From a virus: a stretch of DNA of 29,351 bases. The notes under the pieces were generated by a model, which saw only the letters and a list, made by a program, of their open reading frames with translations, had not been told where the DNA came from and searched no databases. Shown one piece after another: positions 1-19,469 of the stretch. Position 1 is the stretch's first letter; each line of letters opens with the position of its first letter. Location of the stretch: the UHGV virus genome UHGV-0299584; one strand, written 5' to 3'. The translations under genes and the position numbers were made by a program.

Positions 1-59
1 AAGGTCTCATGACTCGTCGTGAGATTGAGCGTGAAATCTGTTTGTGGGGTCAGCAATGA
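1..59 (+). CDS. Endolysin, 3' end only (partial; reading frame begins at nt 3)
   Basis: Open frame entering the window translates ...[18 protein letters not shown] and stops at TGA 57-59, overlapping the Rz ATG (ATGA). Assignment rests on position immediately upstream of Rz/Rz1. Confidence 0.45.
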
Positions 60-523
60 ACAGAGTAACCGCGATTATCTCCGCTCTGGTTATCTGCATC
101 ATCGTCTGCCTGTCATGGGCTGTTAATCATTACCGTGATAATGCAATCGCCTACAAAGAACAGCGCGATAACAAGGCCAGTGAACTGGAGAAGGCGAACG
201 CCACCATTACTGACATGCAGCAGCGCCAGCGTGATGCTGATGCACTCGATGATAAATACACGAAGGAGTTAGCTGATGCGAAAGCTGAAAATGATGCTCT
301 TCGGCGCAAGCTTGATAATGGTGGTCGGGTGCTCGTCAAAGGAAAATGCCCTGTGCCATCCTCAGCCGAAACCTCCAGCGCCTCCGGCATGGGCAATGAT
401 GCCACCGTCGAACTCTCTCCAGTTGCTGGACGAAACGTTCTCGGTATCCGGGACGGAATTATCCGCGACCAAACAGCATTGAGAACGCTTCAGGAATACA
501 TCAGGACGCAATGCCTTCGATGA
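56..523 (+). CDS. Rz: Rz-type i-spanin (inner-membrane spanin)
   Basis: Protein [31 protein letters not shown]... has an N-terminal transmembrane segment then a coiled-coil periplasmic domain, closely resembling lambda Rz as recalled. ATG at 56 preferred over the GTG at 44 used by the ORF track. Rz1 is embedded in the +1 frame. Confidence 0.85.
276..482 (+). CDS. Rz1: Rz1-type o-spanin (outer-membrane lipoprotein), embedded in Rz
   Basis: +1-frame ORF wholly inside Rz. Product [21 protein letters not shown]... has a signal peptide with lipobox (VVGC) followed by a proline-rich segment ([11 protein letters not shown]), as in lambda Rz1. Confidence 0.75.
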
Positions 524-870: not shown

Positions 871-1413
871 ATGAACTACCCAACCGTTGTTAACGATATA
901 GATTTCAGAGACCTAATTTTTGTAGCAAACAACGATCCGGTTACAGATTCTTTTATGGTGGCAAAAGCATTTGGAAAGCTGCCGAAGAACGTAGTCCGTG
1001 ACATTGAGCGAACCATAGAAGCTTGCCCTCCTGAGTTTGATACAAAGCTCAACTTTGAGCTTTGCTATAAAAACAATGAGTTACAGAATGGTAAGCCGCA
1101 AAAATTCTACCGTCTCCGCAAGGATGGGTTGATGCTTTTGGTTATGTCCTACACCAAAAAAGAAGCAATGCGTATCAAAATTGCTTACATCAACGCATTT
1201 AACTGGATGTACGCCATGCTTCAGGTTGGTCATCGTCAATTTGAAGAAGAGAGAAATGCCGTAATGCTGGAGTACATGAAAGAGAAGGATGTTGCCAGCA
1301 TGTCAGGCCGCCTGCTTAATCGCTGGGGAAAAATTAAGAAGCCTCAGCTACTGGCGAGAATTGAACGCCTTGAACAGCACGGGCAAACCGTAATCCCCGG
1401 ACTCACCAATTAA
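871..1413 (+). CDS. rha: Rha-family phage regulatory protein
   Basis: 180-aa ORF with RBS AAAGG at 856-860. Product matches my recollection of the Rha family, and the position between lysis cassette and terminase is where rha sits in P22-like phages. Confidence 0.65.
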   Translation: MNYPTVVNDIDFRDLIFVANNDPVTDSFMVAKAFGKLPKNVVRDIERTIEACPPEFDTKLNFELCYKNNELQNGKPQKFYRLRKDGLMLLVMSYTKKEAMRIKIAYINAFNWMYAMLQVGHRQFEEERNAVMLEYMKEKDVASMSGRLLNRWGKIKKPQLLARIERLEQHGQTVIPGLTN

Positions 1414-2432: not shown

Positions 2433-2927
2433 ATGAATATGGCAGCACCAAAGGGCAACCGATTTTGGGAGGCCCGCAGTAGTCATGGGCGAAATCCTAA
2501 ATTCGAATCGCCTGAGGCGCTGTGGGCTGCTTGTTGTGAATACTTCGAGTGGGCTGATGATAACCCGCTATGGGAGGGTAAGGTATTTTCATATCAGGGA
2601 GAAATAATTAAGGCTAATGTCCCTAAGATGCGAGCCATGACTATTTCAGGATTGTGTACCTTCCTTGATATCACCAGGCAAACATGGGGAACCTTCCGGT
2701 CAATGGAAGGTTTTTCTGACGTCACATCACGAGCGGAAGACATCATCTACGACCAGAAATTCTCTGGTGCAGCCGCTGACCTTCTCAACGCTAACATCAT
2801 CGCCCGTGATTTGGGCCTCAAAGAGCAGTCGCAAGTTGAAGACGTGACACCTGATAAGGGAGATCGCGATAAGCGACGCTCTCGTATCAAGGAGCTATTC
2901 AACCGTGGAACTGGACGCGATTCTTGA
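2433..2927 (+). CDS. terS: Terminase small subunit (P22 gp3-like)
   Basis: 164-aa product [40 protein letters not shown]... closely matches P22 gp3 as recalled; overlaps the terL start by 23 nt. Confidence 0.85.
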
Positions 2928-4404
2928 TAACCTGAGCGACGAAGAGCAAATCGAATTGCTCGAGCTACTCGAAGAAGAAGAAAACTACCGGAACACACAC
3001 CTGCTATATGAATTTACGCCATACAGCAAACAGCGTGAGTTCATCGACGCCGGACATGACTATCCAGAGCGATGTTTTATGGCTGGTAACCAGCTTGGTA
3101 AGTCATTTACTGGTGCTGCTGAAGTCGCGTTTCACCTTACAGGGCGTTATCCGGGCACAAAAGGCTATCCTGCTGATGGTAAATATGGTGGGGAGTGGAA
3201 AGGTAAGCGTTTCTATGAGCCTGTTGTCTTCTGGATTGGTGGCGAGACAAACGAGACGGTAACCAAAACGACTCAACGCATCCTGTGCGGTCGTATCGAA
3301 GAGAATGATGAGCCAGGCTACGGTTCCATACCTAAAGAAGACATCATTAGCTGGAAGAAGTCTCCTTTCTTTCCGAACCTTGTTGATCATCTTCTGGTTA
3401 AGCATCACACGGCTGATGGCGTTGAAGATGGCATTTCAATCTGCTACTTCAAACCATACTCGCAAGGCCGCGCTCGCTGGCAGGGTGACACAATCCACGG
3501 CGTGTGGTTTGACGAAGAGCCACCATACAGCATTTATGGCGAAGGTCTTACCCGTACCAACAAATACGGGCAATTCTCAATTCTGACGTTTACCCCGCTG
3601 ATGGGGATGTCTGACGTTGTTACCAAGTTCCTGAAGAATCCAAGCAAGTCGCAGAAAGTGGTCAACATGACCATCTATGACGCTGAGCACTACACCGACG
3701 AGCAGAAAGAGCAAATCATCGCATCCTATCCTGAGCATGAGAGAGAGGCGCGTGCTCGCGGTATTCCTACGATGGGTAGTGGTCGAATCTTCCAGATACC
3801 GGAAGAGACGATTAAGTGTCAGCCGTTCGAGTGTCCTGATCACTTCTACGTAATTGGCGGGATGGATTTCGGATGGGATCACCCGCAGGCGCAGGTTCAG
3901 CTTTGGTGGGATAAGGACGCAGACACAATCTACGTTTCACGCGTGTGGAAGGCGAAAGAAAAAACAGCGGTTCAGGCATGGGGAGCTGTTAAATCATGGG
4001 CGCATAAAGTGCCAACCGCATGGCCTCATGACGGAAACCAGCATGAGAAGGGCGGCGGTGAGCAGCTCAAAGGGCAGTATGCAGACGCTGGATTTATGAT
4101 GTTACAGGAGCATGCGACATGGCCTGATGGCGGTAATGCTGTTGAGCCTGGCATCACTGAATTGCGCGACATGATGCTCGATGGTCGCTTCAAAGTATTC
4201 AACACCTGTGAGCCATTCTTTGAGGAGTTCCGCCTCTATCACCGTGATGAAAACGGGAAAATCGTCAAGCTTAACGACGACGTTCTCTCAGCCGTTCGCT
4301 ATGCATACATGATGCGCCGCTTTGCCAAAATGATGCGCGATATCAAAAAACCAAAAGAGAAAAAGATACCAGCCCCAATCAGGCCCATCGCACGGAGAAC
4401 TTAA
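2905..4404 (+). CDS. terL: Terminase large subunit (P22 gp2-like)
   Basis: 499 aa, the same length as P22 gp2 and near-identical by recollection; GTG start. Confidence 0.93.
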
Positions 4405-6570
4405 ATGGCCGACGAAAACAGACTCAATTCCATTCTGTGCAAGTTTGACGCGGACTGGATGGCGAGCGATGAAGCCAGAACCGAGGCGACAAATGACCTG
4501 TATTTTAGCCGAGTGTCGCAATGGGATGACTGGCTATCAAACTACACCACCCTGCAATATCGCGGACAATTCGATGTTGTTCGCCCGGTGGTCAGGAAAC
4601 TGGTCGCAGAGATGCGTCGGAACCCTATCGACGTTCTATTCAGACCCAAAGACGGCGCTAATCCTGATGCAGCCGATGTGTTGATGGGGATGTATCGTAC
4701 TGATATGCGCCATAACACGGCAAAGATTGCCGTTAACGTTGGCGTTCGTGAGCAGATAGAGTCCGGCGTTGGTGCATGGCGTCTGGTCACACAGTACGAA
4801 GACAACGACCCAACAAGCAACAATCAGGTAATCCGACGCCTTCCAATCCATGAAGCCTGCTCACACGTCATATGGGACGCAAACAGCAAGCAGATGGATA
4901 AGAGCGACGCTAAGCACTGCACGGTGATTAACGCCTTGTCGCGCAATGGCTGGAAAGAGTTCGCAGAGGATTACGGTATTGATCCTGACACCCTGCCATC
5001 TTTCCAGAATCCGAACGACACATGGCTGTTTCCGTGGGTATCGAATGATGTCGTCTACGTCGCTGAGTATTACGAGGTAGAAGAGAAGAAGGAGAAAGTC
5101 TTCATCTACCGCGACCCGTTGACAGGTGAGCCAGTCAGCTATTACCAGCAGGATATTAAAGACGTTATCGACGACCTGGCTAATCGTGGATTCATTAAGG
5201 TAGCAGAGCGCAAGGTGAAGCGTCGTCGTGTGTATAAGTCGATCATCACCTGCACGCAGATACTGAAAGACCGAGAAAAGATAGCCGGAGAGCATATCCC
5301 AATCGTTCCAGTGTATGGAGAATGGTCATTCGCTGGTGACAAGGAGTGCTACGAGGGAGTGGTAAGGCTGACGAAAGACGGTCAACGCCTTCGTAACATG
5401 ATCATGTCGTTCAACGCCGATATTGTTGCTCGTTCACCGAAGAAGAAACCGACCTTCTTCCCTGAGCAAATCGAAGGCTACGAATACATGTACGGTGGAA
5501 ATGATGACTATCCGTACTATCTGCAGAACAGGACCGATGAAAACGGTAACGACCTGCCGATTGGTCCAATCTCCTACATGGAAAACCCTGAAGTGCCGCA
5601 AGCCAACGCTTACATGCTTGAGGCTGCCACCAACGCAGTGAAAGAGGTGGCTAGTCTTGGCGTGGATGCGCAGGCAGCAAACTCTCAGGTCGCTTTCGAT
5701 ACTGTCAATCAACTGAACATGCGAGCAGACCTTGAGACATATGTGTTTCAGGATAACCTGGCTACCGCAATGCGACGTGATGGCGAGATTTATGCCTCAA
5801 TGGTCAACGATATTTATGACGTTCCTCGTCATGTAACGCTGACACTTGAAGATGGTAGCGAGAAAGACGTTCAACTATACGCGCAAGTTGTAGATTACCA
5901 GTCCGGTAATGTGGTCACGCTCAACGACATTCGCGGTCGCTATGAGTGCTATACAGACGTTGGACCATCCTTCCAGAGTATGAAGGAACAGAACCGCGCA
6001 GAGATTCAGGAGTTGCTCACCAAGGTTCCGCAAGGTACTCCAGAGTTCCAGATGCTGATGCTGCAATACTTCACGCTGCTTGACGGTAAAGGCGTCGAGA
6101 TGATGCGAGAGTACGCGAACAAGCAACTGGTGATGATGGGGCTGAAGAAACCAGAAACACCTGAAGAGATGGAGATGGTACAGCAGGCTCAACAGCAGCC
6201 GCAGCAGCCATCAGCAGAGCAAATTCAGGCGCAGGGTATCCTTCTGCAAGGTCAGGCTGAATTGCTCAAGGCAGAGAACCAACAGGCGCAGATTCAGGTT
6301 GAAGCCGCCAAGGTTGAAGCCCAAAACCAACTCAACGCCGCGAAGATTGCGGAAATCTTCAACAATATGGACCTCGACAAACAGGCAGAACTGCGTGAGT
6401 ACCTCAAGCTCGTAGGTCAATTCCAGCAACAGCGCAGCAAAGATGCTCGTGCTAACGCTGAGCTGCTTCTTAAAGATGCAGACCAGACTCATTCACAACG
6501 CATGGATTTCGCGAATCTTATGCGTCAAGTTCAAATCCCCTCCGGCGGAGTAGCCGAGACACCTCAATAA
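4405..6570 (+). CDS. Portal protein (P22 gp1-like)
   Basis: 721 aa; N-terminus [18 protein letters not shown]... and Q/A-rich C-terminal barrel region match the P22 portal as recalled. GGAG RBS; ATG abuts the terL stop. Confidence 0.95.
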
Positions 6571-6583
6571 GAGAGAGTTAACC

Positions 6584-7495
6584 ATGGACCAAACCACCGA
6601 CATTCAGGCTTCTGAAGAATTAACCCTGCCCGGCAATCATGCAGCGGCATCTGCTGATGGCTTAGTTGTCGATAATGCCAACGACATCGCAGGTCAGGAA
6701 GAAGGCTTCGAGATTGTCCTGAAAGACGATGAGAAACCAAAACAAGACCCGGCAACTAATGCTGAATTTGCCCGTCGCCGCATCGAACGCAAACGCCAGC
6801 GTGAGCTTGAGCAGCAGATGGAAGCGGTTAAGCGTGGAGAGTTGCCGGAGCACCTGCGGGTGAACCCTGAGTTACCAAAACAACCAGACCCTAACGATTA
6901 TCTTTCCGAAGATGCACTGGCTAAGTACGACTATGACCAGAGCCGCGCACTGGCTGCCTTCCAGCAGGCAAACAGTGAATGGCAGATCAAGGCTATGGAC
7001 GCACGAAGCCAGGCTGTCGCCGAGCAGGGTCGCAAAACTCAGGAGTTCACCCAGCAATCAGCGCAATACGTCGAGGCAGCCCGTAAGCACTACGACGCAG
7101 CGGAAAAGCTCAATATCCCTGACTATCAGGAGAAAGAGGATGCATTCATGCAACTGGTGCCGCCAACAGTCGGTGCCGATATCATGCGCCTCTTCCCGGA
7201 GAAATCCGCTGCTCTCATGTATCACCTTGGTGCTAATCCTGAGAAAACACGCCAGTTGCTGGCGATGGACGGGCAATCCGCGCTGATTGAACTCACTCGA
7301 CTGTCAGAACGTTTAACTCTCAAGCCTCGAGCCAAGCCTGTTTCAGAAGCCCCGTTACCTGATGAACCCATTCAGGGACATGCTGTTGCTGCAAATATCT
7401 CTGCGATTGAAAAGCAGATGGAGGCGGCAGCAAACAAAGGGGATGTAGAGACGTACCGCAAGCTCAAGGCGCAACTGAATAAAGGAATTCGATAA
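6584..7495 (+). CDS. Scaffolding protein (P22 gp8-like)
   Basis: 303 aa, same length as P22 gp8, with conserved C-terminal coat-binding helix-turn-helix region (...[18 protein letters not shown]). Confidence 0.92.
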
Positions 7496-8017
7496 TTATT
7501 TCGATATCGTGATGTTGTTTTCCTCGTCAAACTTTCTGATTACTTCTTTCGCCTCTTCGAATGAAGAACATACTTTTTGCACTCTTGCATTAAGCAGTCG
7601 CTTATGAGCGATCCATCTTTTCCGCGTGTTGCAAAAGTAAACTCCAGATATTCCGCTGGAGTTATTTTTAGATAGTTTGATTCTATTCCTTTGGTTTGCT
7701 GATTTTTTCACAAGACGAAGATTTTCAATTCTGTTGTCGTGGCGAATCCCATTTATATGGTCAATTTCCATGCCTTCTGGAATATCTCCGTTAAACATTA
7801 CCCATACGATGCGGTGTGCTAGCCACTTAATGCCGTTAATTCTTATGCGGATATATCCATTGCTTTCTAAAAGACCAGCAACTTTTCCAGCGTGTTTTGC
7901 ATTCCAAACGTTGTGATAGTTGCGATTCTTTTTGTTGTTGAAAAATTCAGAGCTTCTGGCTTTCCAAACCAAAGAACCATCGCGGTATTCGAAGTATTCA
8001 TTCAGTTCCATGCTCAT
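7496..8017 (-). CDS. Free-standing HNH homing endonuclease
   Basis: 173-aa product contains the HNH core EIDHINGIRHDNRIENLRLV plus a C-terminal basic region (GISGVYFCNTRKRWIAHK) resembling the DNA-binding modules of phage homing endonucleases. Antisense to the late operon, AT-rich by eye; its stop abuts the scaffold stop. Confidence 0.8.
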   Translation of the reverse strand: MSMELNEYFEYRDGSLVWKARSSEFFNNKKNRNYHNVWNAKHAGKVAGLLESNGYIRIRINGIKWLAHRIVWVMFNGDIPEGMEIDHINGIRHDNRIENLRLVKKSANQRNRIKLSKNNSSGISGVYFCNTRKRWIAHKRLLNARVQKVCSSFEEAKEVIRKFDEENNITISK

Positions 8018-8084
8018 AACCCTAATGCGCTATATGTTGATATAACAATAGTATAGCACATAAAGAAAGTAAGGTATTCAATAT

Positions 8085-9380
8085 ATGACTCTCAAAGAAG
8101 GGCAGTTAGTTACTTACGCTATCGATGAAATCATCGAAACCGTCCAGAACCTGACGCCAATGGCGTCCAAAGTGACAAAATACACCCCTCCGGCAGAATC
8201 CATGCAACGTTCAAGCAACACCGTGTGGATGCCTGTTGAGCAGGAAGCGCCAACTCAGACTGGCTGGGATTTAACTGGCAACGCAACCGGGATTCTGGAA
8301 CTCTCCGTGAAGTGCAACATGGGCGATCCGGATAACGATTTCTTCGAGCTTCGTGCAGATGACCTGCGTGATGAGCGTTCTTACCGTCGCCGCATCCAGG
8401 CATCCGCCAAAAAACTGGCGAATAACATTGAGTCAGCAATTGCCAAACAGGCAACCGAAATGGGCTCACTTGTTGTTCACGATACCAGCGCAATTGGTCC
8501 ATCTACTGGCCTGTCTGGCTGGGATTTTGTGTCTGATGCAGAGCGACTGATGTTCTCCCGCGAACTCAACCGCGACATGGGTATCAGTTACTTCCTGAAC
8601 CCTGACGATTACCGCAAAGCAGGCCGCAATCTTGTAGATGGTGACATCTTCGGGCGCGTTCCTGAAGATACGTATCGCAACGGTACTATTCAGCGTCAGA
8701 TTGCTGGCTTTGATGAAATTCTTCGCTCACCGAAACTTCCGGCAGTTACCAAGTCAACCGCTACTGGTGTAACTGTTTCTGGCGCGCAGAAGTTTAAGCC
8801 GCAGGCATACACCCTTGATACCGATGGTAACAAAGAGAACGTCGACAACCGTGTTGCAACGGTGACCGTATCCTCCACCACCGGATTTAAGCGCGGCGAC
8901 AAAATCAGTTTCACTGGTGTGAAATTCCTGTCTCAGATGGCGAAGAACGTGCTGACTGATGATGCAACTTTCTCAATCACCCGTGTGATCGATAGTACTC
9001 ACATCGAAATCACGCCGAAGCCGATTGCACTGGATGACGCGTCACTGACAAAAGAAGAGAAGGCTTACGCTAACGTAAACACCTCTCTTGCTGATACCAC
9101 TCCGGTAAACGTTCTGAACGTGGCAACAACCACCGCTAACGTGTTCTGGGCTGATGACTCAATCCGCCTTCTGTCTCAGCCGATCCCGGTAACCCATGAA
9201 CTGTTTGCTGGCATGAAAACGTCTTCCTTCAGCATTCCTGGTATTGGTGTTAACGGCATCTTCGCAACGCAGGGTGATATCAACACTCTGTCTGGTAAGT
9301 GCCGTATTGCTGTGTGGTATTCAGCATGTGCTGTACGACCAGAAGCAATTGGTGTTGGTCTGCCTAATCAGACCGCGTGA
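8085..9380 (+). CDS. Major coat protein (P22 gp5-like)
   Basis: 431 aa; sequence tracks the P22 coat protein along its length by recollection (e.g. ...[12 protein letters not shown]..., ...[11 protein letters not shown]..., C-terminal [14 protein letters not shown]). Confidence 0.95.
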
Positions 9381-9387
9381 TAACCAG

Positions 9388-9409
9388 AGGGAGCTTCGGC
9401 TCTCTTTTT
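9388..9409 (+). terminator. Hairpin with C(UUCG)G tetraloop plus U-run just after the coat stop (terminator or attenuator)
   Basis: AGGGAGC-ttcg-GCTCTCT stem with TTTTT at 9405-9409, 8 nt after the coat TGA. Confidence 0.5.
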
Positions 9410-9423
9410 ATCTGGAGACAAGC

Positions 9424-9696
9424 ATGACACACATGATCTTTCGTCATGGCGACATGAAGAAATGGAAAGGCGTTGGATACGACTTTGAAATCGTGAAAGC
9501 CGAAGAGCTTCAGGAATATCTGGATGCTGGCTGGTTTGCACATCCTGATGATCTTCTGAAGGATGTTGCAGAGCCAGAGCCAGAGCCAGAGCCAGAGCCA
9601 GAACCAGAGCCAGAGCCAGAGCCAGAAGAAAAACAGCGTAAAAAGCCTGGTCGAAAACCTAAGGCGGCAGCAGATGAACCTGACAACGAAGGGTGA
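9424..9696 (+). CDS. Small acidic protein with (Glu-Pro)n linker repeat
   Basis: ATG 9424 with GGAGA RBS. Product [38 protein letters not shown]... then an EP dipeptide run, then the basic tail [11 protein letters not shown]. Overlaps the gp4 start. Confidence 0.6.
9571..9624 (+). repeat. Tandem hexanucleotide repeat (GAGCCA)x9, one unit GAACCA
   Basis: Nine contiguous 6-nt units read directly from the sequence, in frame as Glu-Pro. Confidence 0.95.
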
Positions 9697-10174
9697 TTTA
9701 GTTCTTGCGGCATTACGTAAGCTCGGTGTGGCATCAAATGCCACGTTAACCGATGTCGAACCGCAGTCTATGGAAGACGGCGTCAACGACCTTGAAATGA
9801 TGATGGCTGAATGGCTTGGCGGTGATGCGTCACCTGGTATCAACGTTGGCTACATTTTTGCTGATGCAGATGTCGCTCCGGATCAGGGCGATGAGCACGG
9901 TTTATCAAATAACGCCATCAATGCCGTCATTTTCAACCTTGCCTGCCGCATTGCTCCGGATTATGCGCTGGAAGCGCCAGCAAAACTTATAACCACTGCC
10001 AGATACGGGAAAGAGCGACTCGTCAAACTGTCTGCAATGGACAGAGCAAAAGCCGCTAAATGTAAGTCCGGTTATCCAAACCGTATGCCTGTTGGTAGCG
10101 GTAACCAGTTGGCGAAGTGGAATGGTTGGAATTACTTCCACCGGAAGGAACCTTGCGATAACGGGGGCGAATAA
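9674..10174 (+). CDS. Head completion / portal-binding protein (P22 gp4-like)
   Basis: 166 aa from ATG 9674 ([21 protein letters not shown]...), same length as P22 gp4. The ORF-track extension from 9563 (MLQSQSQ...) is a frame artefact of the hexamer repeat. Confidence 0.85.
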
Positions 10175-11593
10175 ATGCCGATTCAGCAACTTCCGCTTAT
10201 GAAAGGTGTCGGCAAAGACTTTCGAAACGCCGACTATATCGACTATCTGCCAGTGAATATGCTGGCTACACCCAAAGAAATCCTGAACAGCAGCGGATAT
10301 CTTCGCTCATTCCCTGGCATTGCCAAACGCTCTGATGTGAACGGTGTATCTCGCGGCGTCGAGTACAACATGGCGCAGAATGCTGTTTATCGCGTGTGTG
10401 GTGGCAAACTGTACAAAGGAGAAAGCGAAGTCGGTGACGTCGCCGGAAGTGGTCGCGTATCAATGGCGCATGGTCGAACATCACAGGCGGTAGGTGTTAA
10501 TGGTCAACTGGTCGAGTATCGCTATGATGGCACGGTTAAAACAGTCTCAAACTGGCCTACAGACAGCGGATTCACTCAGTATGAGTTAGGTTCGGTTCGC
10601 GACATTACGCGTTTACGTGGGCGTTATGCGTGGTCAAAAGACGGAACTGATTCATGGTTTATCACTGACCTTGAAGACGAATCACATCCTGACCGTTACA
10701 GCGCACAATATCGCGCAGAATCGCAGCCTGACGGCATCATTGGCATCGGAACATGGCGAGACTTCATCGTCTGTTTTGGTTCATCGACGATTGAGTATTT
10801 TTCCCTGACTGGTGCAACTACCGTTGGTGCCGCTTTGTATGTTGCACAACCATCGCTGATGGTGCAGAAAGGTATTGCCGGGACTTACTGCAAAACGCCG
10901 TTTGCTGATTCGTATGCGTTCATCAGCAATCCGGCAACGGGTGCGCCGTCTGTATACATCATCGGATCAGGTCAGGTATCACCAATCGCCAGCGCGAGCA
11001 TTGAGAAAATCCTCCGCTCCTACACTGCTGATGAACTGGCTGATGGCGTGATGGAATCTCTGCGATTTGATGCGCATGAGCTTCTGATTATCCATCTTCC
11101 GCGCCATGTTCTGGTGTACGACGCATCTTCAAGCGCCAATGGTCCGCAATGGTGTGTGTTGAAAACTGGCTTGTATGACGATGTGTACCGCGCTATCGAC
11201 TTCATTTACGAAGGCAATCAGATAACGTGCGGCGATAAGCTGGAATCTGTTACCGGGAAACTGCAATTCGACATCAGCAGCCAGTACGACAAGCAACAGG
11301 AACACCTGCTGTTTACTCCGTTGTTCAAAGCGGATAACGCCAGAGTTTTCGACCTTGAAGTTGAATCGTCAACTGGCGTTGCGCAGTACGCCGACCGCCT
11401 TTTTCTCTCTGCAACCACTGACGGCATCAATTACGGACGTGAGCAGATGATTGAGCAGAATGAACCGTTCGTTTACGACAAACGCGTTTTGTGGAAGCGA
11501 GTTGGGCGCATCAGGAAAAATGTCGGCTTCAAATTGCGTGTTATCACTAAGTCACCTGTCACTCTGTCAGGCTGCCAGATAAGGATCGAGTAA
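10175..11593 (+). CDS. Tail accessory / head completion protein (P22 gp10-like)
   Basis: 472 aa, same length as P22 gp10; conserved order after gp4. Confidence 0.88.
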
Positions 11594-12546
11594 TGGCTGA
11601 TTCGAATCTCAATGAGCCGGTAATCATTCAGGCTACACGACTCGACACATCAGTCCTTCCACGCAATATCTTCTCGCAGTCGTATCTGCTTTACGTTATC
11701 GCACAGGGCACTGATGTTGGTAACGTGGCTAACAAGGCCAACGAAGCAGGGAAGGGGGCTTATGATGCACAGGTGAAGAATGATGAGCAGGATGTCATCC
11801 TTGATGACCATGAATCCAGAATTGAAGCTGCTGAAGCAACTCTCATCAATCATGAACATAGAATTGCAGCAGCGGAAAGCACTCTTGCAGATCATGAAAC
11901 AAGGATTACGGCTGCCGAAACAGAGCTGGCTGATCACGAGACGCGAATTGCTGCCAATGAATCTGAGTTAGCAAACCATGATGCGCGAATAACTCAGAAT
12001 ACAGCCGATATCGGCGCACTTGATACCAGGCTCACAGCGGCAGAGGGAAGTATTTCGACGCTACAAAGCACAGTTGGTGATCACTCAACAAGAATATCTG
12101 CGCTTGAGTATGCCACCACGCGCAAGAAATCAGAGGTTGTTTACTCAGGACTATCGGTAACCATCCCGACAGCGCCGACCAACCTTGTTAGCCTGCTGAA
12201 AACGCTCACGCCGTCATCCGGCACGTTGGCACCATTCTTCGACACCGTTAACAACAAGATGGTTGTGTTCAACGAGAACAAAACCCTGTTCTTCAAGCTG
12301 TCGATTGTCGGGACGTGGCCCAGCGGAACCGCCAACAGGTCAATGCAGCTAACCTTTTCCGGCTCTGTTCCTGACACACTTGTGAGCAGTCGTAATGCGG
12401 CGACAACAACCGACAACATCCTGTTAGCTACGTTCTTCAGCGTGGATAAAGACGGCTTTCTTGCCACAAATGGCAGCACGTTAACCATTCAGTCGAATGG
12501 TGCGGCGTTTACTGCTACAACCATCAAAATCATTGCGGAGCAGTGA
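11593..12546 (+). CDS. Tail needle (P22 gp26-like) with extended coiled coil and C-terminal knob
   Basis: N-terminal ~60 aa ([27 protein letters not shown]...[13 protein letters not shown]) resemble the gp10-binding tip of P22 gp26. Followed by 11-residue-periodic DHExRIxAAE repeats and a ~140-aa beta-rich C-terminal domain, as in Sf6-type needles. Confidence 0.8.
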
Positions 12547-13025
12547 TGGAAATAAAGCTCATCGATAATCCGGTGAAGCTTGCAGAATTCCTCAACAACC
12601 CGGCAAACACGGGAAATATCGTAGACAGTGGAGATAAATACTACATCAAGCCTGATGCGGTATATCTCGGCATCTACGAAGGATTAGTGCTGGCTGGGGT
12701 TCATGAAGTGCGTAACTTCTGGCATAGCGTTGTTGAATGCCATGCTGTGTACGACCCCGGATTCCGTGGCGAATATGCACTGCAAGGGCATCGATTATTC
12801 TGCAAATGGCTTCTCGAAAACTCACCATTCCTTAACAGCATCACCATGGTTCCTGACACCACCAAATACGGACGGGCAATTATCCGTTTGCTTGGCGCTA
12901 CCCGTGTTGGTCACCTTGATGATGCTTATACCAGCAATGGAAAGCCTGTAGGCATCACGATTTATCAGTTACCGCGCTCAAAATACGAGGAGCTAAAGAA
13001 TGTTAATTTTCCAGATTGCCAATAA
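12546..13025 (+). CDS. Putative gp14-like ejection/assembly-associated protein (position-based)
   Basis: 160-aa ORF in the gp14 position; ATG overlaps the needle stop (TGATG). Confidence 0.5.
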   Translation: MEIKLIDNPVKLAEFLNNPANTGNIVDSGDKYYIKPDAVYLGIYEGLVLAGVHEVRNFWHSVVECHAVYDPGFRGEYALQGHRLFCKWLLENSPFLNSITMVPDTTKYGRAIIRLLGATRVGHLDDAYTSNGKPVGITIYQLPRSKYEELKNVNFPDCQ

Positions 13026-13653
13026 GCACCTCAGCAAAGCTGTTTACTGCAAAGGCGGCAGTGATGGCGGTTCAAAAGCCCAGGCACGCGCAACTGAAAA
13101 GGGTATCGAATTGCAGCGTGAAATGTGGCAAACGAACATGCAAAACCTCGCACCGTTCACGCCACTCGCTCAACAGTACGTATCAGAGTTGCAGAATCTT
13201 TCCTCTCTTCAGGGGCAAGGTCAGGCGCTTAACCAGTATTACAACTCCCAGCAGTACAAAGACCTTGCTGGTCAGGCGCGTTACCAGAGTCTGGCAGCAG
13301 CAGAGGCAACTGGTGGATTAGGCTCTACAGCAACAGGAAACCAGTTAGCATCAATCGCACCTACACTCGGTCAAAACTGGCTGTCAGGTCAGATGAACAA
13401 CTACAACAATCTGGCAAATATCGGCCTTGGTGCTCTTACAGGTCAGGCAAACGCCGGACAGAACTACGCTAACAACGTCAGCCAATTGTATCAACAGCAG
13501 GCGGCAGCATCTGCGGCTAATGCGAATAAACCATCAGGATTTCAGAGCGCCTTGAGTGGAGCGGCAGCAGGTGCAGCTGCAGGTACTGCAATCATGCCTG
13601 GTTGGGGTACAGCAATTGGTGCTGGCGTCGGTCTTCTTGGTTCACTTTTTTAA
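13000..13653 (+). CDS. Ejection protein (P22 gp7-like)
   Basis: 217 aa, Q/N/A-rich with a Gly/Ala-rich hydrophobic C-terminus (AAGAAAGTAIMPGWGTAIGAGVGLLGSLF); GAGG RBS. Confidence 0.7.
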   Translation: MLIFQIANKHLSKAVYCKGGSDGGSKAQARATEKGIELQREMWQTNMQNLAPFTPLAQQYVSELQNLSSLQGQGQALNQYYNSQQYKDLAGQARYQSLAAAEATGGLGSTATGNQLASIAPTLGQNWLSGQMNNYNNLANIGLGALTGQANAGQNYANNVSQLYQQQAAASAANANKPSGFQSALSGAAAGAAAGTAIMPGWGTAIGAGVGLLGSLF

Positions 13654-13665
13654 TGGAGGTGTCTC

Positions 13666-14967
13666 TTGGCTACATGGCAACAGGCTGGTAATTCAGGCGC
13701 GCTTCTTGCCGGGTTAGGCGGCATGAACTCCAACGCTCCAAGAGCAAGTGATGCAGACGCCACACTTGCATACATTCGACAGAATAACGAGATGGAGCGT
13801 TCAGGACGTAATAACGTTGGCTTGCAGGCTTTGCAGGGCATTTCATCTGTCATGGATATGTATAAGCAGATGGATCAGCAGAAGCGGCAGCAAGAGTTTC
13901 AGCAGGCTTATGCTGATGCATATACATCTGGTGACCGCGATGCAATGCGAAAACTGGCATCACAGTATCCTGAGCAGTTTGACGCTGTAAGAAACGGCAT
14001 GAAATTTGTCGATGAAGACCAGCGTTCCACTGTCGGTACACTGGCAGCAAGTGCCAGACTCGCAGCTTCATCTCCAGAAGCCATGATGTCATGGTTGCAG
14101 AACAACTCATCTGAGCTTACTCGTGCCGGAGTAGACCCTCTGGATGTGGCGAAAATGTATCAGCAAAATCCACAAGGTTTCACAGAGTTTGTTGATCACC
14201 TTGGAATGGCTGCACTTGGTCCGATTGATTACTTCAATGTTCAGGACAAGATGGCTGGTCGTGAGATTGACCGAGGTAGGCTGGCAGAGACAATCCGCAG
14301 CAATCAGGCTGGCGAGGCACTAACAGCACGAGGTCAGGACATCCAGATACGTGGCCAGAACATCAGCGTACAGAATGCTGCTCTTTCCCGCAAAATACAA
14401 AGAGCAGAATTACAAGAAAAGGCTCTGGACAGACAGATAGCCAGAGAAAGCAATCAGTTAAAGCTTGAAGAGCTAAAGCAGAAACAGGCAGATGTTCGGC
14501 AAAAGGCTGAAATAGCTCGTGCTGACAGACAGGCCGCCGCTCAGGGCGCTGTTGATACGTTCAGCACTGCGCTTGATTCTCTCAACGAGATAGAGCAAAG
14601 CCCTGGACTTTCAAAAGCAGTTGGTATTCGCTCAGCGTTTCCGACAGTTCCTGGATCTGATGCGGCTAACTTTGAAGCAAGACTCGACACCTTTAAAGCT
14701 CAAACTTTCCTCCCTATGGTGCAGTCCCTGAAGGGGATGGGGGCTCTTTCAGATGCTGAGGGTAAAAAATTATCCGATGCGGTTGGTGCTCTAAGTCCCA
14801 AAATGAGTGAAAAGGCTTTTCGTGACTCTATCGGAAAGATTCGAAATCAGCTTGAAAGCAAGTTGAGCACTGTTAAAAAACAGTTTGATTACCAGGAGCC
14901 GGTGCAGAATACGCCAGGACAACAATCTCCTGCTGGCAGTAATTTTTCTTCACTATGGGGTGATTAA
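13666..14967 (+). CDS. Ejection protein (P22 gp20-like)
   Basis: 433 aa; TTG start preceded by a strong GGAGG RBS; stop overlaps the next ATG (TAATG). Confidence 0.75.
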   Translation: MATWQQAGNSGALLAGLGGMNSNAPRASDADATLAYIRQNNEMERSGRNNVGLQALQGISSVMDMYKQMDQQKRQQEFQQAYADAYTSGDRDAMRKLASQYPEQFDAVRNGMKFVDEDQRSTVGTLAASARLAASSPEAMMSWLQNNSSELTRAGVDPLDVAKMYQQNPQGFTEFVDHLGMAALGPIDYFNVQDKMAGREIDRGRLAETIRSNQAGEALTARGQDIQIRGQNISVQNAALSRKIQRAELQEKALDRQIARESNQLKLEELKQKQADVRQKAEIARADRQAAAQGAVDTFSTALDSLNEIEQSPGLSKAVGIRSAFPTVPGSDAANFEARLDTFKAQTFLPMVQSLKGMGALSDAEGKKLSDAVGALSPKMSEKAFRDSIGKIRNQLESKLSTVKKQFDYQEPVQNTPGQQSPAGSNFSSLWGD

Positions 14968-16964
14968 TGGCTAAAGCATGGAAAGATGTTATCGCCTCTC
15001 CACAGTATCAGGCGTTAGCACCAGAACAAAAAGCGCAGGCTCAGGAGCAATACTTCAATGAAGTCGTGGCCCCGCAAGCCGGAGAAAATGCAGAGCAGGC
15101 TAAGCAAGCTTTCTATGCTGCCTATCCATTGCCATCTGTGCAGCAAGTGGAGACACAGCAACCAGTAGCACAGCAACAACCACAGCAAAGTGGATTTATG
15201 TCTGATCTTGGCGAAGCAGTAAAAGAGACTGGTCGCGGACTGGTGCAGGCTGGCGTGAACGTGGCAAACATACCTGCATCAGTTGCCGATGCTGTAACAA
15301 GTGCGGCTGCATGGGCTGGCGGTAAACTCGGCATTGGCGATGGTACATATCAACCAGCGCCACGAGTAACAACGCAGGGATTAGAGCAGGACTTTGGCCT
15401 TCAGCAAGGCGCGCTGACTCCACAAACGACAGAGGGCAGGGTGTTTGCTGAAGCATTGCCTTACCTCACTCCTGCTGGCGTTGAGAGAGCGGCAACACTG
15501 GCACCAACACTTGCTGGTCGAATTGCTCAGGGGGCAACTCGCCTTCTCGCAGAAAACGCAGTTGGATCACTTGCTGCAAACAGTGCGAAAGATGATGCGG
15601 AAGCACTCGCCACCGATTTAGGCGTTGGTGTGCTGGCTGGCGGTGCTATTAACGCTGCCGGACGTGGATTAGGTGCTGCTTATCGTGGTGTTCGTGGTTC
15701 GATAGCACCAGAAGCGCAACAGGCTATCAGATTTGCAGAGCGTGAAGGAGTTCCTCTGCACACCACAGACCTGTTACAACCAACTTCCCGCGTCGGAAAA
15801 ATGGCGCAGACTACAGCAGAAAATATCCCTCTGGCTGGCACAAGCGGAATGAGAGCAACGCAACAGGAAGCGAGAAGCCAGTTGGTGCAGAGATTTGCTG
15901 ATAAATTCGGCGAGTACGATCCGGCAGTTGTTATTGACAGCCTTAAAGCGAAAACATCAGGAATTCGTCGTGCTGCTGGGAACCGTCTTGAGCAGGTACA
16001 GAATGCAATGGCAGGAATCAACATTCAACCTGCCAGAGCAATTCAGCAGATAGATACTGAGATATCTAACCTGCAGAAGCTTGGTAAGGTCGCTGATAAC
16101 GAGACGATTTCAAAACTTCAATCCTATCGTGATGAGCTTGTTCGCAATGCTGGCCCTGATGGTCCGGTAAATCTGGATTTGAAGCAATTAAGCGACCTGC
16201 GCAGTCAGTTCAGAATGGACGTGAAGGGTGAGCGACCAGTGTTACCAAACCGTTCCGATGCCGCCATTCAGCGCGTTTACAAGGCGATGACCGACGATAT
16301 CAATGGTGCCATTGGTCAGAATCTTGGCAACGATACTCTCCGTAAATATCAGCAGGCCAATGCCGTCTACGCTGACGAAGCGGCGAAACTCAAGAATACC
16401 AGGCTGAAGAATGTTCTCATGAAAGGCGATCTGACGCCGGAAGTTGTCAACAACATGCTATTCAGCAAGAACAAATCGGAAATTAAGACGCTGTATAACT
16501 CAGTTGGTCGTGTTGGCAGGACGCAAATGCGCAATGGCATCATTGGAAAGGCGATGGAGAAATCTGGCGGATCCCCTGACCAGTTCCTTCGGCAGCTTAA
16601 CATCCTGCAAAACCAGACTGGCATCACATTTAAGGGGCAGGACGCTGCTTATCTGAAGGGATTAAAAAACTACCTGCAATCCACGCAGCAGGCTGCAAAA
16701 GCGGCAGTAACAACCCCCACAGGGCAGCAAACCATCCCGTTCATTATCGGGTATGGGACGGCAATGAACCCGGCGACAACTGGCGCAGCAGTAAGCTACG
16801 GACTTCTTACTCGCGCCTATGAGAGCGAGCCATTCAGAAATGCAATGCTCCGAATGGCAAACACCCCACGCGGATCAACAGCGTTTGAGAAAGCCATGCA
16901 GCAGGTACAAAAGGCAATTAACGCCCTGACTCAGGGAGCTAAGTCTGATGCGTTGTCAGAATAG
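14967..16964 (+). CDS. Ejection protein (P22 gp16-like)
   Basis: 665 aa, last of the four-gene ejection block before the tailspike; Ala/Gly/Gln-rich. Confidence 0.8.
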   Translation: MAKAWKDVIASPQYQALAPEQKAQAQEQYFNEVVAPQAGENAEQAKQAFYAAYPLPSVQQVETQQPVAQQQPQQSGFMSDLGEAVKETGRGLVQAGVNVANIPASVADAVTSAAAWAGGKLGIGDGTYQPAPRVTTQGLEQDFGLQQGALTPQTTEGRVFAEALPYLTPAGVERAATLAPTLAGRIAQGATRLLAENAVGSLAANSAKDDAEALATDLGVGVLAGGAINAAGRGLGAAYRGVRGSIAPEAQQAIRFAEREGVPLHTTDLLQPTSRVGKMAQTTAENIPLAGTSGMRATQQEARSQLVQRFADKFGEYDPAVVIDSLKAKTSGIRRAAGNRLEQVQNAMAGINIQPARAIQQIDTEISNLQKLGKVADNETISKLQSYRDELVRNAGPDGPVNLDLKQLSDLRSQFRMDVKGERPVLPNRSDAAIQRVYKAMTDDINGAIGQNLGNDTLRKYQQANAVYADEAAKLKNTRLKNVLMKGDLTPEVVNNMLFSKNKSEIKTLYNSVGRVGRTQMRNGIIGKAMEKSGGSPDQFLRQLNILQNQTGITFKGQDAAYLKGLKNYLQSTQQAAKAAVTTPTGQQTIPFIIGYGTAMNPATTGAAVSYGLLTRAYESEPFRNAMLRMANTPRGSTAFEKAMQQVQKAINALTQGAKSDALSE

Positions 16965-17128
16965 CGTTGCAAACACCAGGAACGTGCAAAAACCAAATAT
17001 GTAGAACGCAATATTCAACAGATCTTTTTGCATAGACTCATCTCATAGTTAACAAATCATAACTTACATTAAGGCAATGCCGGGCAAGTTGCATCTTGTT
17101 CCGCATTGCTACGTCTGGAGAAAATTAA

Positions 17129-18790
17129 ATGACAGACATTACAGCCAATGTTGTAGTGAGTATGCCTTCGCAACTCTTCACTATGGCGCGTTCTTTTAAA
17201 GCGGTTGCCAATGGCAAAATTTATATCGGTAAAATTGACGCTGACCCGGTAAATCCTGAAAACCAGATTCAGGTTTATTTAGAGAACGAAGACGGCTCTC
17301 ACGTTCCTGTATCGCAACCAATCATCATTAACGCTGCTGGTTACCCGGTATATAACGGACAGATCGCCAAATTCGTTACTGTACATGGCCATTCTATGGC
17401 TGTTTATGATGCGTACGGTGCTCAGCAGTTCTATTTTCCTAATGTGCTGAAGTACGATCCCGATCAGCTTAGATCACAGATAGAATACGGGCAGTATATT
17501 CACATTCCTGATGGTTATTCACATTATGATGAGTTTGATAATATTCCTCTGAATATATTGGGTGTGGATTATAGTCCTGTTAATGTATATGATGTTTCTT
17601 ATGATGTGTTGACTGGTATATTTAAAGTTTCTGTTCAGAATGCAGATAATTTTCATGTTGGTAAATATTGTATACTTTCTGGCAGGAGAGACATTTCATG
17701 TGGAGCGATGATAATTTCCAAGGATGGAAATGTTTTAACATTGGATATGAGTCACAATGGTATAATTTCAGGCCCGGTTAACGGGGTTGTGGCAAAACCA
17801 ATAAATTCCATAATAAAAACAACAAAAGGAATACAATTTAGATCAAATATATACAGCATAAAAAATGTTGCTATTGAAACAGATGGTGATTACGGACTCA
17901 TTATCGGAGGTGGATACTACCCTGATTCACAATGTGGTAGTTGCGTAGTTTGGGATGCAAACAATTTAATTGTAAATGGAGGCTCTGTTTGTGGAGTTCT
18001 TGTTTCTGGCTCTGGATCTCAGTTTTGTATCAATGAAGTTCATATTACTAACGCAAATATTTCGCTGGAATGTATTTACGCAGCTAGCGTGAAAGGTTTT
18101 TCATTTTCATCATACAATTCAAATGAAGACTCAATTAAGGTTGAGCATGCTTCATCTTGCTATATAAAAGAATTGTCAATTATAAAACCGAAAACTCAGT
18201 CTTGCGTAGCGGCTCGTTATTCATCATCTGTAGAGATATCTGATTGTTATATGGTTGGAAGTGAAGGTTCAGCATTTGCTACCAGCCAATTTTCCTCATA
18301 TTTATCATTAAGAAATATTGTTATGCTAGGGAGCGCAAAATATGCGATAAACTGCGTCGATGGTGCTGTTGTCGCAATAAATAATATCGACGCCTCTTTA
18401 GCTAAAGTGGATTATGGGGTAAGGGTTGAAAAACACTCAGTTTTAAGACAGGTAGGTATAAATAGCAATTTTTCAGGTTCTATTGCCGATTCGCTAATAA
18501 ATAACTCTCATGTTGATTTCAATGATATCGTGTTTTCTGGGAAAAAAATTAAATCAACAATTAATGTTGGTTCAATTAATCCAAACTCTAGATTTTCAAT
18601 TCAGAGGGTAGCTACTGGATATAAAATAGAAAATGAACTTCCAATCAATATGACGGTGTTAGGAGATCTGCCAATAGGGGTTATAACTGATGTATTGGCA
18701 ATATCAGACGACATGATTCGTGTTACATTCCAAAACACTAGCTCATCACCTGTTGATGTTGGCAGTGTTGATGTCATTATAGGATGGTAA
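17129..18790 (+). CDS. Tailspike: conserved head-binding domain fused to a divergent beta-helix receptor-binding domain
   Basis: First ~115 aa ([34 protein letters not shown]...VLKYDPDQ) match the P22/Sf6/HK620 head-binding domain as recalled. The remainder is AT-rich, Ser/Asn/Ile/Gly-rich and shows no recognisable similarity to P22 gp9. GGAG RBS. Confidence 0.85.
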
Positions 18791-18840
18791 TAATACTAAA
18801 AAGTAGATTTATTTTGTAAGTTTTTTATTATTGTTTATAA

Positions 18841-18859
18841 GGCCAAAAAACTTTTGGCC
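18841..18859. terminator. Palindromic hairpin between convergent tailspike and acetyltransferase genes (putative bidirectional terminator)
   Basis: GGCCAAAA-aac-TTTTGGCC, an 8-bp perfect stem in an AT-rich context between two convergent stop codons. Confidence 0.45.
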
Positions 18860-18875
18860 TTATGCTAAATGAGAT

Positions 18876-19469
18876 TTATAGTAATCGCCTATCCCATTTC
18901 ACACCTGTTTTGATTATTTTTGCTGGAGTACCAGCAATAATAATATTGCTTTCAGAAAATTTACCAGTTACAGTTGCCCTTGCGCCAACAATAGTTTCAT
19001 CTGGAATAAAGGCACCTTTCATGATGAGCGCATCAAGACCAATCCAGCACTTATCTCCTATTGATATGTTTTTTGCTGGATTTATCCTGTTTCCATCCAT
19101 ATCTGTTATTGAATGTGAGTCTGTTGTTCTTATTTGAACGCCTGACGCAAACATGCAATTAACACCAATTGAAACACTAGTCCCCTCTTGAATGTTTATA
19201 TTGGTGTTCTGAAAGCTTGTAAGGCTTGATATCACGAGACAGTTCCCATCGCCTCTCATATTTACAGAGCCAACTATAGAACACCTCTCACCGATATTAA
19301 TAGTATTATTATCACCATTTATCAAAATGGATAAATTATGTATTTTTGCATGCTTTTCTATATTTATATGATTGTTCTTTCCATTAATGCGAATAGATAT
19401 TTTTTTTATGTCAGCATCAACATGATTTATAGAGTTATTTTCTCCGGAAATCTGTTTTATTATATCCAT
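18876..19469 (-). CDS. Hexapeptide-repeat (left-handed beta-helix) acetyl/acyltransferase, moron
   Basis: Product shows periodic [LIV]-G-x4 hexads (INIGERCSIVGSVNMRGDGNCLVISS..., ISIGDKCWIGLDALIMKGAFIPDETIVGARATVTG) typical of the LacA/WcaF/CysE-type family. AT-rich; sits between tailspike and int. ATG 19469 preferred over TTG 19481. Confidence 0.7.
   Translation of the reverse strand: MDIIKQISGENNSINHVDADIKKISIRINGKNNHINIEKHAKIHNLSILINGDNNTINIGERCSIVGSVNMRGDGNCLVISSLTSFQNTNINIQEGTSVSIGVNCMFASGVQIRTTDSHSITDMDGNRINPAKNISIGDKCWIGLDALIMKGAFIPDETIVGARATVTGKFSESNIIIAGTPAKIIKTGVKWDRRLL

Follow-up and report, generated by a model that had tools for sequence, protein, structure and literature searches.

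A Conserved Stem-Loop with a UUCG Tetraloop Behind the Coat Gene in the Late Operon of a P22-Like Phage

Introduction

The coat gene in the viral genome UHGV-0299584 is followed by an RNA stem-loop of the intrinsic-terminator type, which lies on the sense strand of a single late operon. Judged by sequence comparison across the whole 29,351-nt stretch of DNA that was analysed (hereafter the window) and its relatives, this hairpin is the orthologue of an element annotated in the phages P22, L and g341c, and hence a real, conserved and already known one. The pattern of substitutions among relatives indicates that it is under purifying selection as an RNA structure. With regard to its function, the reading that we favour, and to which we give about even confidence, is that, in an antiterminated late operon, the hairpin mainly delimits and shields the 3' end of the scaffold-coat mRNA, and that partial termination contributes to a lesser degree. 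The role originally predicted from the sequence alone is the same hypothesis that has already been published for the orthologous element (BK000583, AY795968, FJ000341; PMC8022706). Tailed phages with a single late promoter need hundreds of coat subunits per dozen or fewer minor proteins, and hairpins behind major capsid or major tail genes are a candidate lever for the ratio of coat to minor proteins. The window offers another clean instance of such a hairpin, and the comparison adds evidence for selection on its structure; it brings no new concept.

Genomic Setting of the Hairpin

The window covers the late region of an E. coli phage or prophage of the P22-like type (Lederbergvirus). Among phage records, APC_JM3.2, IME10, Louie and Dewey come nearest, with 94–97% DNA identity over positions 8900–9900. 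The genes around the hairpin and the parts of the hairpin itself are collected in Table 1, and the order of coat gene, hairpin, small ORF and gp4 is the same in P22 and L. The small ORF contains a hexanucleotide repeat of 9.7 copies (9569–9626) that encodes (PE)n, and the length of this repeat appears to differ between relatives. Its N-terminal ~45 amino acids (M..M.F..G...K.WG...GW..HPDD) are common to the ORFs at the same position in many relatives, which are of the phage L orf186-like kind.

Table 1. Genes of the late region and elements of the post-coat hairpin, in window coordinates.
Feature	Position	Strand	Basis or remark
Rz	44–523		Pfam
Rha-type gene	871–1413		Pfam
gp3, small terminase	2433–2927		Pfam
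Scaffolding protein	6584–7495		Pfam
HNH endonuclease	7496–8017	minus	Pfam
Coat (major capsid) protein, homologue of P22 gp5	8085–9380	plus	PF11651 P22_CoatProtein, E 1.6e-162; 72% identical to P22 gp5
Tandem in-frame stop codons TGA TAA	9378–9383	plus	Sequence; identical in close relatives
Hairpin 5' arm, AGAGGGAGC	9386–9394	plus	Minimum-energy fold, pair probabilities
UUCG tetraloop, closing pair C9394–G9399	9395–9398	plus	Sequence
Hairpin 3' arm, GCUCUCUUU	9399–9407	plus	Fold, pair probabilities, sequences of relatives
U-tract, five T, partly shared with the stem base	9405–9409	plus	Sequence
Shine-Dalgarno GGAGA (9414–9418) and ATG of the next gene (9424–9426)	9414–9426	plus	Directly after the U-tract; same layout in relatives
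Small 90-aa ORF with (PE)n repeat, first gene past the hairpin	9424–9696	plus	Position of P22 orf69 / phage L orf186
gp4	9674–10174		PF11650
gp10	10175–11593		Pfam
Tail needle	11593–12546		Pfam

Structure and Stability of the Hairpin

Read directly from the sequence, the coat ORF ends with TGA at 9378–9380 and is followed at once by an in-frame TAA at 9381–9383. A spacer of 43 nt, inside which the hairpin AGAGGGAGC-UUCG-GCUCUCUUU is found, separates the coat stop from the ATG at 9424. The whole hairpin (9386–9407) consists of nine contiguous pairs, namely four G-C or C-G, three A-U and two G.U, and its loop is of the C(UUCG)G type, with CTTCGG at 9394–9399. The original prediction had described a UUCG hairpin with a T run directly after the coat gene, and the anatomy is as described there, with the hairpin at 9386–9407 and the T run at 9405–9409. 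Its stem of 7–8 bp is the same stem without the weak base, the full count being nine pairs, and its offset of 8 nt from the coat stop agrees with the start of the GC core, while the full stem begins after only 5 nt. An intrinsic terminator calls for a GC-rich stem of 5 bp or more, a loop of 3–8 nt and a U-tract directly after the stem; here the stem has 9 bp and the loop 4 nt, UUUUU stands at 9405–9409, and six T are found in the 8 nt past the GC core. Three of the five T are able to pair with AGA at the base of the stem, and the U-tract is short and weak, because only UUAUCU remains past the full 9-bp stem.

Energy calculations bear out the predicted stability. The minimum free energy is −11.9 kcal/mol for the 27 nt from 9384 to 9410 (about −11.4 to −11.9 kcal/mol overall), which corresponds to a z-score of −2.9 against shuffled sequences, 3 out of 200 shuffles folding equally well. 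The minimum-energy and centroid folds of both 81 nt and 141 nt retain the hairpin, and with flanks of 30–300 nt the probabilities of the core pairs are 0.78–1.0 in most contexts. The exception is a fragment ending at about 9505–9509, where CUUCGG pairs over a long range with CCGAAG (9500–9505) and wins; this competing pairing vanishes with longer flanks and was regarded as a boundary artefact of global folding. An alternative outer helix, CCAGA/UCUGG, which touches the Shine-Dalgarno sequence, reaches a probability of only ~0.2. The minus strand folds less well (−8.7 kcal/mol, z −0.66), and a function on that strand was rejected in view of the weaker fold, the absence of a T run after it and the conversion of the G.U pairs to A.C mismatches.

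The window's copy of the hairpin differs from all others at one position. The T at 9403, which gives rise to a G.U pair, is private to the window, every one of the 82 close relatives having C, and owing to this change (C9403T) the copy is ~3 kcal/mol weaker than that of every relative. An exact search of IMG/VR for the T-9403 variant gave no match, and among 5,426 complete E. coli genomes none matched 9330–9470 at 100%, the best having 1 mismatch in 141 nt. The change could be a recent mutation or a sequencing error.

Within the window, sites of this kind are few. A strict scan, which demanded a hairpin of −9 kcal/mol or lower plus at least four T within the next 8 nt, found seven plus-strand sites in 29 kb as compared to 1.6 in block shuffles. 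Across the structural genes (2433–19137), only two sites were recovered, the post-coat hairpin and one inside the inserted HNH gene. A loose promoter/terminator consensus scan was unenriched overall (20 sites found, 18.5 expected from shuffles); it resolved the post-coat hairpin badly, giving it 6 pairs and a loop of 8, and was superseded by the energy-filtered scan. Rfam at gathering thresholds gave no match at the post-coat hairpin, and hence no membership of a curated family. The 3' segment of CrcZ, brought up there by a permissive local Rfam search, was rejected as being at chance level (9.7 bits versus a gathering score of 95, E 0.98).

Conservation and Covariation Among Relatives

Conservation across many relatives is, on the alignments described here, the strongest argument against a chance hairpin. 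A sensitive DNA search with positions 9300–9480 matched 104 phage records. The conservation in related phages by which the original prediction was to be judged holds throughout the close relatives examined, all 82 of which have the hairpin, and GGGAGC-UUCG-GCUCCC followed by 4–7 T is found in 80 out of 80 IMG/VR contigs with a coat protein 98–100% identical. A profile scan of one genome per bacterial species yielded 31 prophage copies from ~20 genera, with coat identities of 31–97%. Prophages with 65–97% coat identity come from Shigella, Buttiauxella, Kluyvera, Citrobacter, Tatumella, Yersinia, Symbiopectobacterium, Rahnella, Pantoea, Xenorhabdus, Rosenbergiella, Erwinia, Pseudescherichia, Providencia, Proteus and Morganella, and the distant coat relatives of the same scan (31–34% identity) from Sansalvadorimonas and Methylophaga. 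Nearly all of these prophages have a hairpin with a T-rich tail after the coat stop; the spacer between stop and stem ranges from 2 to 21 nt and varies in sequence, too. The weakest cases are two Symbiopectobacterium copies, in which the closing pair is broken, and two Sansalvadorimonas copies with only a weak hairpin and a T-poor tail. Of 128 related sources, 103 have UUCG as their loop, and UGCG, UUAG, GAAA and GCAA are among the others. The locus is also present in 215 of the 5,426 complete E. coli genomes, in which automated annotation (PGAP) leaves the element unmarked.

Covariation was assessed in a loop-anchored, gap-free alignment of 33 distinct variants, P22 and L included. Columns G6, G7, G9, C16 and C18 are invariant. 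Standard pairs make up 91.3% of the cells versus 84.1% in column shuffles, none of the 500 shuffles reaching the observed value, and pairing amounts to at most 69% when the partner is slid. At pair 8–17, 18 variants have G-C, 14 have A-U and 1 has G.U, none being unpaired; pair 10–15 is C-G in 31 variants and U-A in 1 (Xenorhabdus anantnagensis); and pair 5–20 switches among G-C, A-U and U-A. Compensatory changes, including G-C to A-U and C-G to U-A, are found at three pairs, and the covarying pairs probably reflect only few independent events. G.U intermediates occur in Providencia huashanensis and, through C9403T, in the window. Since G.U pairs work only in the plus-sense RNA, and since the minus strand is the weaker one, these changes argue for selection on plus-sense RNA pairing.

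The sequence after the stem is less uniform. At least five T lie in the 8 nt past the GC core in 30 of the 33 variants, though the exact tails differ, and Pantoea sp. and Erwinia have kept a longer hairpin with a T-poor tail, the U-tract being lost. In almost every variant, a Shine-Dalgarno sequence comes within 3–8 nt after the U-tract. A sharp mosaic junction is seen at ~9410, right after the hairpin, in comparisons with three relatives (loci L011, L029 and L077); identity to L011-type relatives is 98.7% over the last 300 nt of the coat gene versus 67% over the next 150 nt.

The Element in P22, L and Other Phages

The P22-like element carries several labels in the databases. The reference record of P22 (BK000583 / NC_002371) has a stem_loop at 6102–6119, termed "putative", and likens its location to that of the HK97 and lambda stem-loops. 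The label is 'RNA stem-loop' in P22-pbi (AF527608), 'terminator' in phage L (AY795968, 7326–7345) and 'Rho-independent terminator' in g341c (FJ000341, 6367–6390). The hairpin of the window agrees with these post-coat stem-loops in position (coat end at 9380, small ORF at 9424, gp4 at 9674, sense strand) as well as in sequence and structure (GGG(A)GC, tetraloop, GC(U)CCC, T-rich tail). The corresponding sequences are AGGGGC-UGCG-GCCCCU-UUCUUUAU in P22 and AGGGGC-UUCG-GCCCCU-UUCUUAUU in phage L. The P22 and window elements align as homologues, both being placed 5 nt past the coat stop and upstream of the small ORF and gene 4, and both being composed of a GC-rich stem, a C-G-closed tetraloop and a U-rich tail, followed by a Shine-Dalgarno sequence. 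They differ in that P22 combines the stem (A)GGGGC/GCCCC(U) and a UGCG loop, whereas the stem of the window is GGGAGC/GCUCUC with a UUCG loop and has one extra A-U pair as well as the private G.U pair; the two coat proteins are 72% identical. Phages L, ST64T, g341c and Emek have the orthologous element with the same C(UUCG)G loop, but with a stem of 5–6 bp (GGGGC/GCCCC) and, downstream, an orf186 that is a different allele.

Comparable hairpins occur behind capsid genes of other types. Sf101 and CUS-3, which are Sf6-type phages with a coat protein 24% identical, have GGUGGGGC-UUCG-GCCCCA-UUUUUAUU after the coat gene. The E–FI junction of lambda has AUGGCCC-UUCG-GGGCCAU-UGUUUCUCU and then a Shine-Dalgarno sequence, and the RefSeq record of HK97 (NC_002167) lists a 'terminator, putative' after gp5 (5192–5213) and on both sides of the major tail gene. 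The lambda and HK97 hairpins resemble that of the window in standing right after the most abundant structural gene of a Q-antiterminated lambdoid late operon, and lambda also in its C(UUCG)G loop and its U-rich tail with the Shine-Dalgarno sequence following. The genes that flank them, however, are without detectable sequence homology to those of the window, and HK97 differs further in its GAAA loop, its 11-bp stem and the additional sites around the major tail gene. Longer post-coat hairpins with long T runs were found in Sortsne and in a Vibrio phage, and no post-coat hairpin was found in the Ralstonia phage Hennie. Hairpins of the C(UUCG)G type in phage intercistronic regions were reportedly described by Tuerk et al. 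in 1988 (PNAS); they share the extra-stable tetraloop and the location in intercistronic phage mRNA, but constitute a structural motif class and not a functional family. In T7, the terminator T-phi is situated directly after the major capsid gene, and the abundance of downstream transcripts drops there (PMC6938266). It is likewise a terminator-type hairpin adjoining the gene for the major capsid protein (gene 10), but it acts on T7 RNA polymerase and not on a Q-modified host polymerase, it is not homologous, and T7 has many promoters whereas P22-like phages have one late promoter.

In the Proteus phage Brookers (L084, 1579–1640), an annotated ORF begins with a TTG 7 nt past the coat stop and spans a GGGAGC-UUCG-GCUCCC hairpin. 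The start of this ORF has probably been called too far upstream, because the ORF runs across the conserved hairpin.

Possible Functions in the Late Operon

The association with the most abundant structural gene, which by analogy extends to unrelated head modules, points to a dosage role. The original prediction had proposed such a role, namely that a partial terminator or an mRNA-stabilising hairpin raises the expression of the coat protein over that of the minor proteins; the proposal is plausible and gains support from the conservation, although sequence alone cannot show function. No direct experiment on the P22 post-coat hairpin was found in the literature. Zaworski et al. (2021) describe the function of terminators of this kind within an operon as 'not known', and give as options partial termination or insulation against non-antiterminated transcription (PMC8022706).

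In the closest complete relative, a gene for an antitermination protein is found upstream of those for holin, lysozyme, Rz, Rha and terminase. Q-type antiterminators of lambdoid phages make the polymerase ignore terminators, and the late RNA polymerase of the window's phage would likewise carry such a factor and read through terminators. The same operon contains two terminator-like hairpins at least as strong as the post-coat one (698–717 and 1863–1886), and because they precede the terminase genes, which are essential, late transcripts have to extend past both. In addition, the promoter scan found no promoter-like site downstream of the post-coat hairpin before 10501. On account of the antitermination protein, the two upstream hairpins and the lack of a promoter-like site before 10501, we infer that the late polymerase mostly passes the post-coat site, which favours a role at the level of RNA.

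Under the favoured reading, the hairpin would act mainly on RNA, forming the 3' boundary of an abundant scaffold-coat mRNA species. After cleavage downstream, it would block 3'-to-5' exonucleases (PNPase, RNase II), and the coat message would outlast that of gp4, gp10 and gp26, which are minor proteins. Some polymerases, a minority, and all of the unmodified ones, would probably terminate at the U-tract and leave the same protected 3' end, so that the net effect would be an increase in coat mRNA relative to the downstream genes. Of what a stabiliser would call for, folding and alignment show a stable and conserved hairpin, which has been kept without a U-tract in two lineages (Pantoea sp. and Erwinia). 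An exonuclease barrier, however, needs no U-tract, and its retention in 30 of 33 variants fits real termination better; alternatively, the retention could reflect the needs of the adjacent ribosome-binding site. The ratios of lambda late-gene products are reportedly set mainly by translation initiation, with mRNA levels roughly uniform (Sampson et al., PNAS, 1988), and if this is so, the analogous hairpin of lambda would contribute little. Two further points weigh against the favoured reading, namely that the window's own copy is the weaker one by ~3 kcal/mol and that the covariation probably stems from few independent events.

The U-tract also bears on the alternative in which a sizeable fraction of the late polymerases stops there, and termination, rather than stability, is the main effect. 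We regard this as rather unlikely, even though the full anatomy of GC core, tetraloop and U-tract is present, the tract persists in those 30 variants despite their differing sequence, and the orthologues in phage L and g341c are annotated as rho-independent terminators. A Q-modified polymerase is known to be built to ignore such hairpins, and does so, on the above reasoning, at two sites of at least equal strength before the terminase genes of the same operon. Furthermore, the tract is short, with five U of which three are pairable, the stop codon is only 5–8 nt from the stem, where a terminating ribosome may interfere, and two lineages keep the hairpin without the tract. Leaky termination is nevertheless one of the options of Zaworski et al. 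(PMC8022706), and T-phi of T7 works in this manner (PMC6938266).

The other option in the literature, an insulator against non-antiterminated polymerases coming from internal or spurious promoters in the head genes, in the lysogen or in early infection, and with little role in the late phase, seems improbable. It was put forward by Zaworski et al. (PMC8022706), an unmodified polymerase should terminate at the hairpin, and in the P22-like prophage BTP1, dRNA-seq has placed four transcription start sites on the coding strand of the capsid gene cluster (PMC7067206). Such an insulator, however, leaves unexplained why the hairpins are sited behind the most abundant structural genes of unrelated head modules (E of lambda, gp5 and the major tail gene of HK97, gene 10 of T7), and the promoter scan of the window found no well-scoring promoter-like site just upstream of the hairpin.

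Going beyond an ordinary terminator or stabiliser, the hairpin might be an RNA signal that is recognised specifically and retained with its C(UUCG)G loop behind unrelated capsid genes (P22-type, Sf6-type and lambda E), and it may double as a recombination joint of the head module. Such a signal could be, for example, the mRNA target of free P22 scaffolding protein in the post-transcriptional regulation of scaffold and coat, or the site of a host RNA-binding factor; we think this very unlikely. There is equally little probability that the element serves the downstream gene, the hairpin being a protective 5' stem-loop on read-through or processed RNA and the U-rich tract an unstructured platform for S1, by which the ribosome-binding site of the small ORF and gp4 would stay accessible and independent of coat translation. 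The close spacing of U-tract and Shine-Dalgarno sequence in almost every variant, as well as the contact of the outer helix CCAGA/UCUGG with the latter at its low probability, would suit a downstream role. The downstream ORF is variable, however, and partly deleted in P22, where the hairpin stays; at the mosaic junction, the hairpin goes together with the coat gene; and the analogous hairpins of HK97 flank differing kinds of downstream genes.

The smallest chance of being right attaches to a linker at a module boundary, in which the near-invariant core of 14–16 nt is mainly microhomology for recombination between mosaic phages, for although the core GGGGCTTCGGCCCC is common to genomes whose coat proteins are only 65–75% identical and the coat 3' end is 98.7% identical to L011-type relatives as against 67% just past the hairpin, the compensatory changes together with the G.U pairs speak for selection on RNA pairing and not on DNA identity, selection for function would by itself lead one to expect junctions at gene boundaries, and in lambda, HK97 and Sortsne the position is taken by hairpins that are not homologous.

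The Scaffold-Coat Junction and Other Features of the Window

A further part of the original prediction, that a comparable element had been displaced from the scaffold-coat junction by the HNH insertion, is contradicted by the relatives that lack the insertion. In these genomes, 71 of the 82 close relatives, the TAA of the scaffold gene overlaps the ATG of the coat gene (TAATG, gap −1 nt), and the junction has neither intergenic space nor a hairpin. Because the scaffold stop overlaps the coat start where the HNH gene is missing, there was no element to be displaced. The insertion itself measures 589 bp (7496–8084), fills precisely the interval from the scaffold stop to the start of the coat gene, contains an HNH_3 endonuclease gene on the minus strand (7496–8017) and is present in the remaining 11 of the 82 relatives. 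In the insertion-bearing genomes, the coat gene has its own ribosome-binding site in place of the TAATG overlap, and in the window and those 11 relatives the coat protein starts with MTLKEGQL versus MALNEGQL. The insertion looks like a free-standing homing endonuclease with co-converted flanks. At 7640–7663, the HNH gene contains an inverted repeat of 8 bp, accompanied by T runs on either strand, which on the plus strand makes a terminator-like site upstream of the coat gene.

The strong terminator-like hairpins at 698–717 and 1863–1886 flank the Rha-type gene (871–1413) between Rz and the small terminase gene, and the gene together with its two hairpins resembles a moron-like arrangement. Between the Rha-type gene and the second of these hairpins, at 1551–1613, int-alpA RNA (RF02996) was recognised above its gathering threshold, with 42 bits and an E-value of 1.2e-05.
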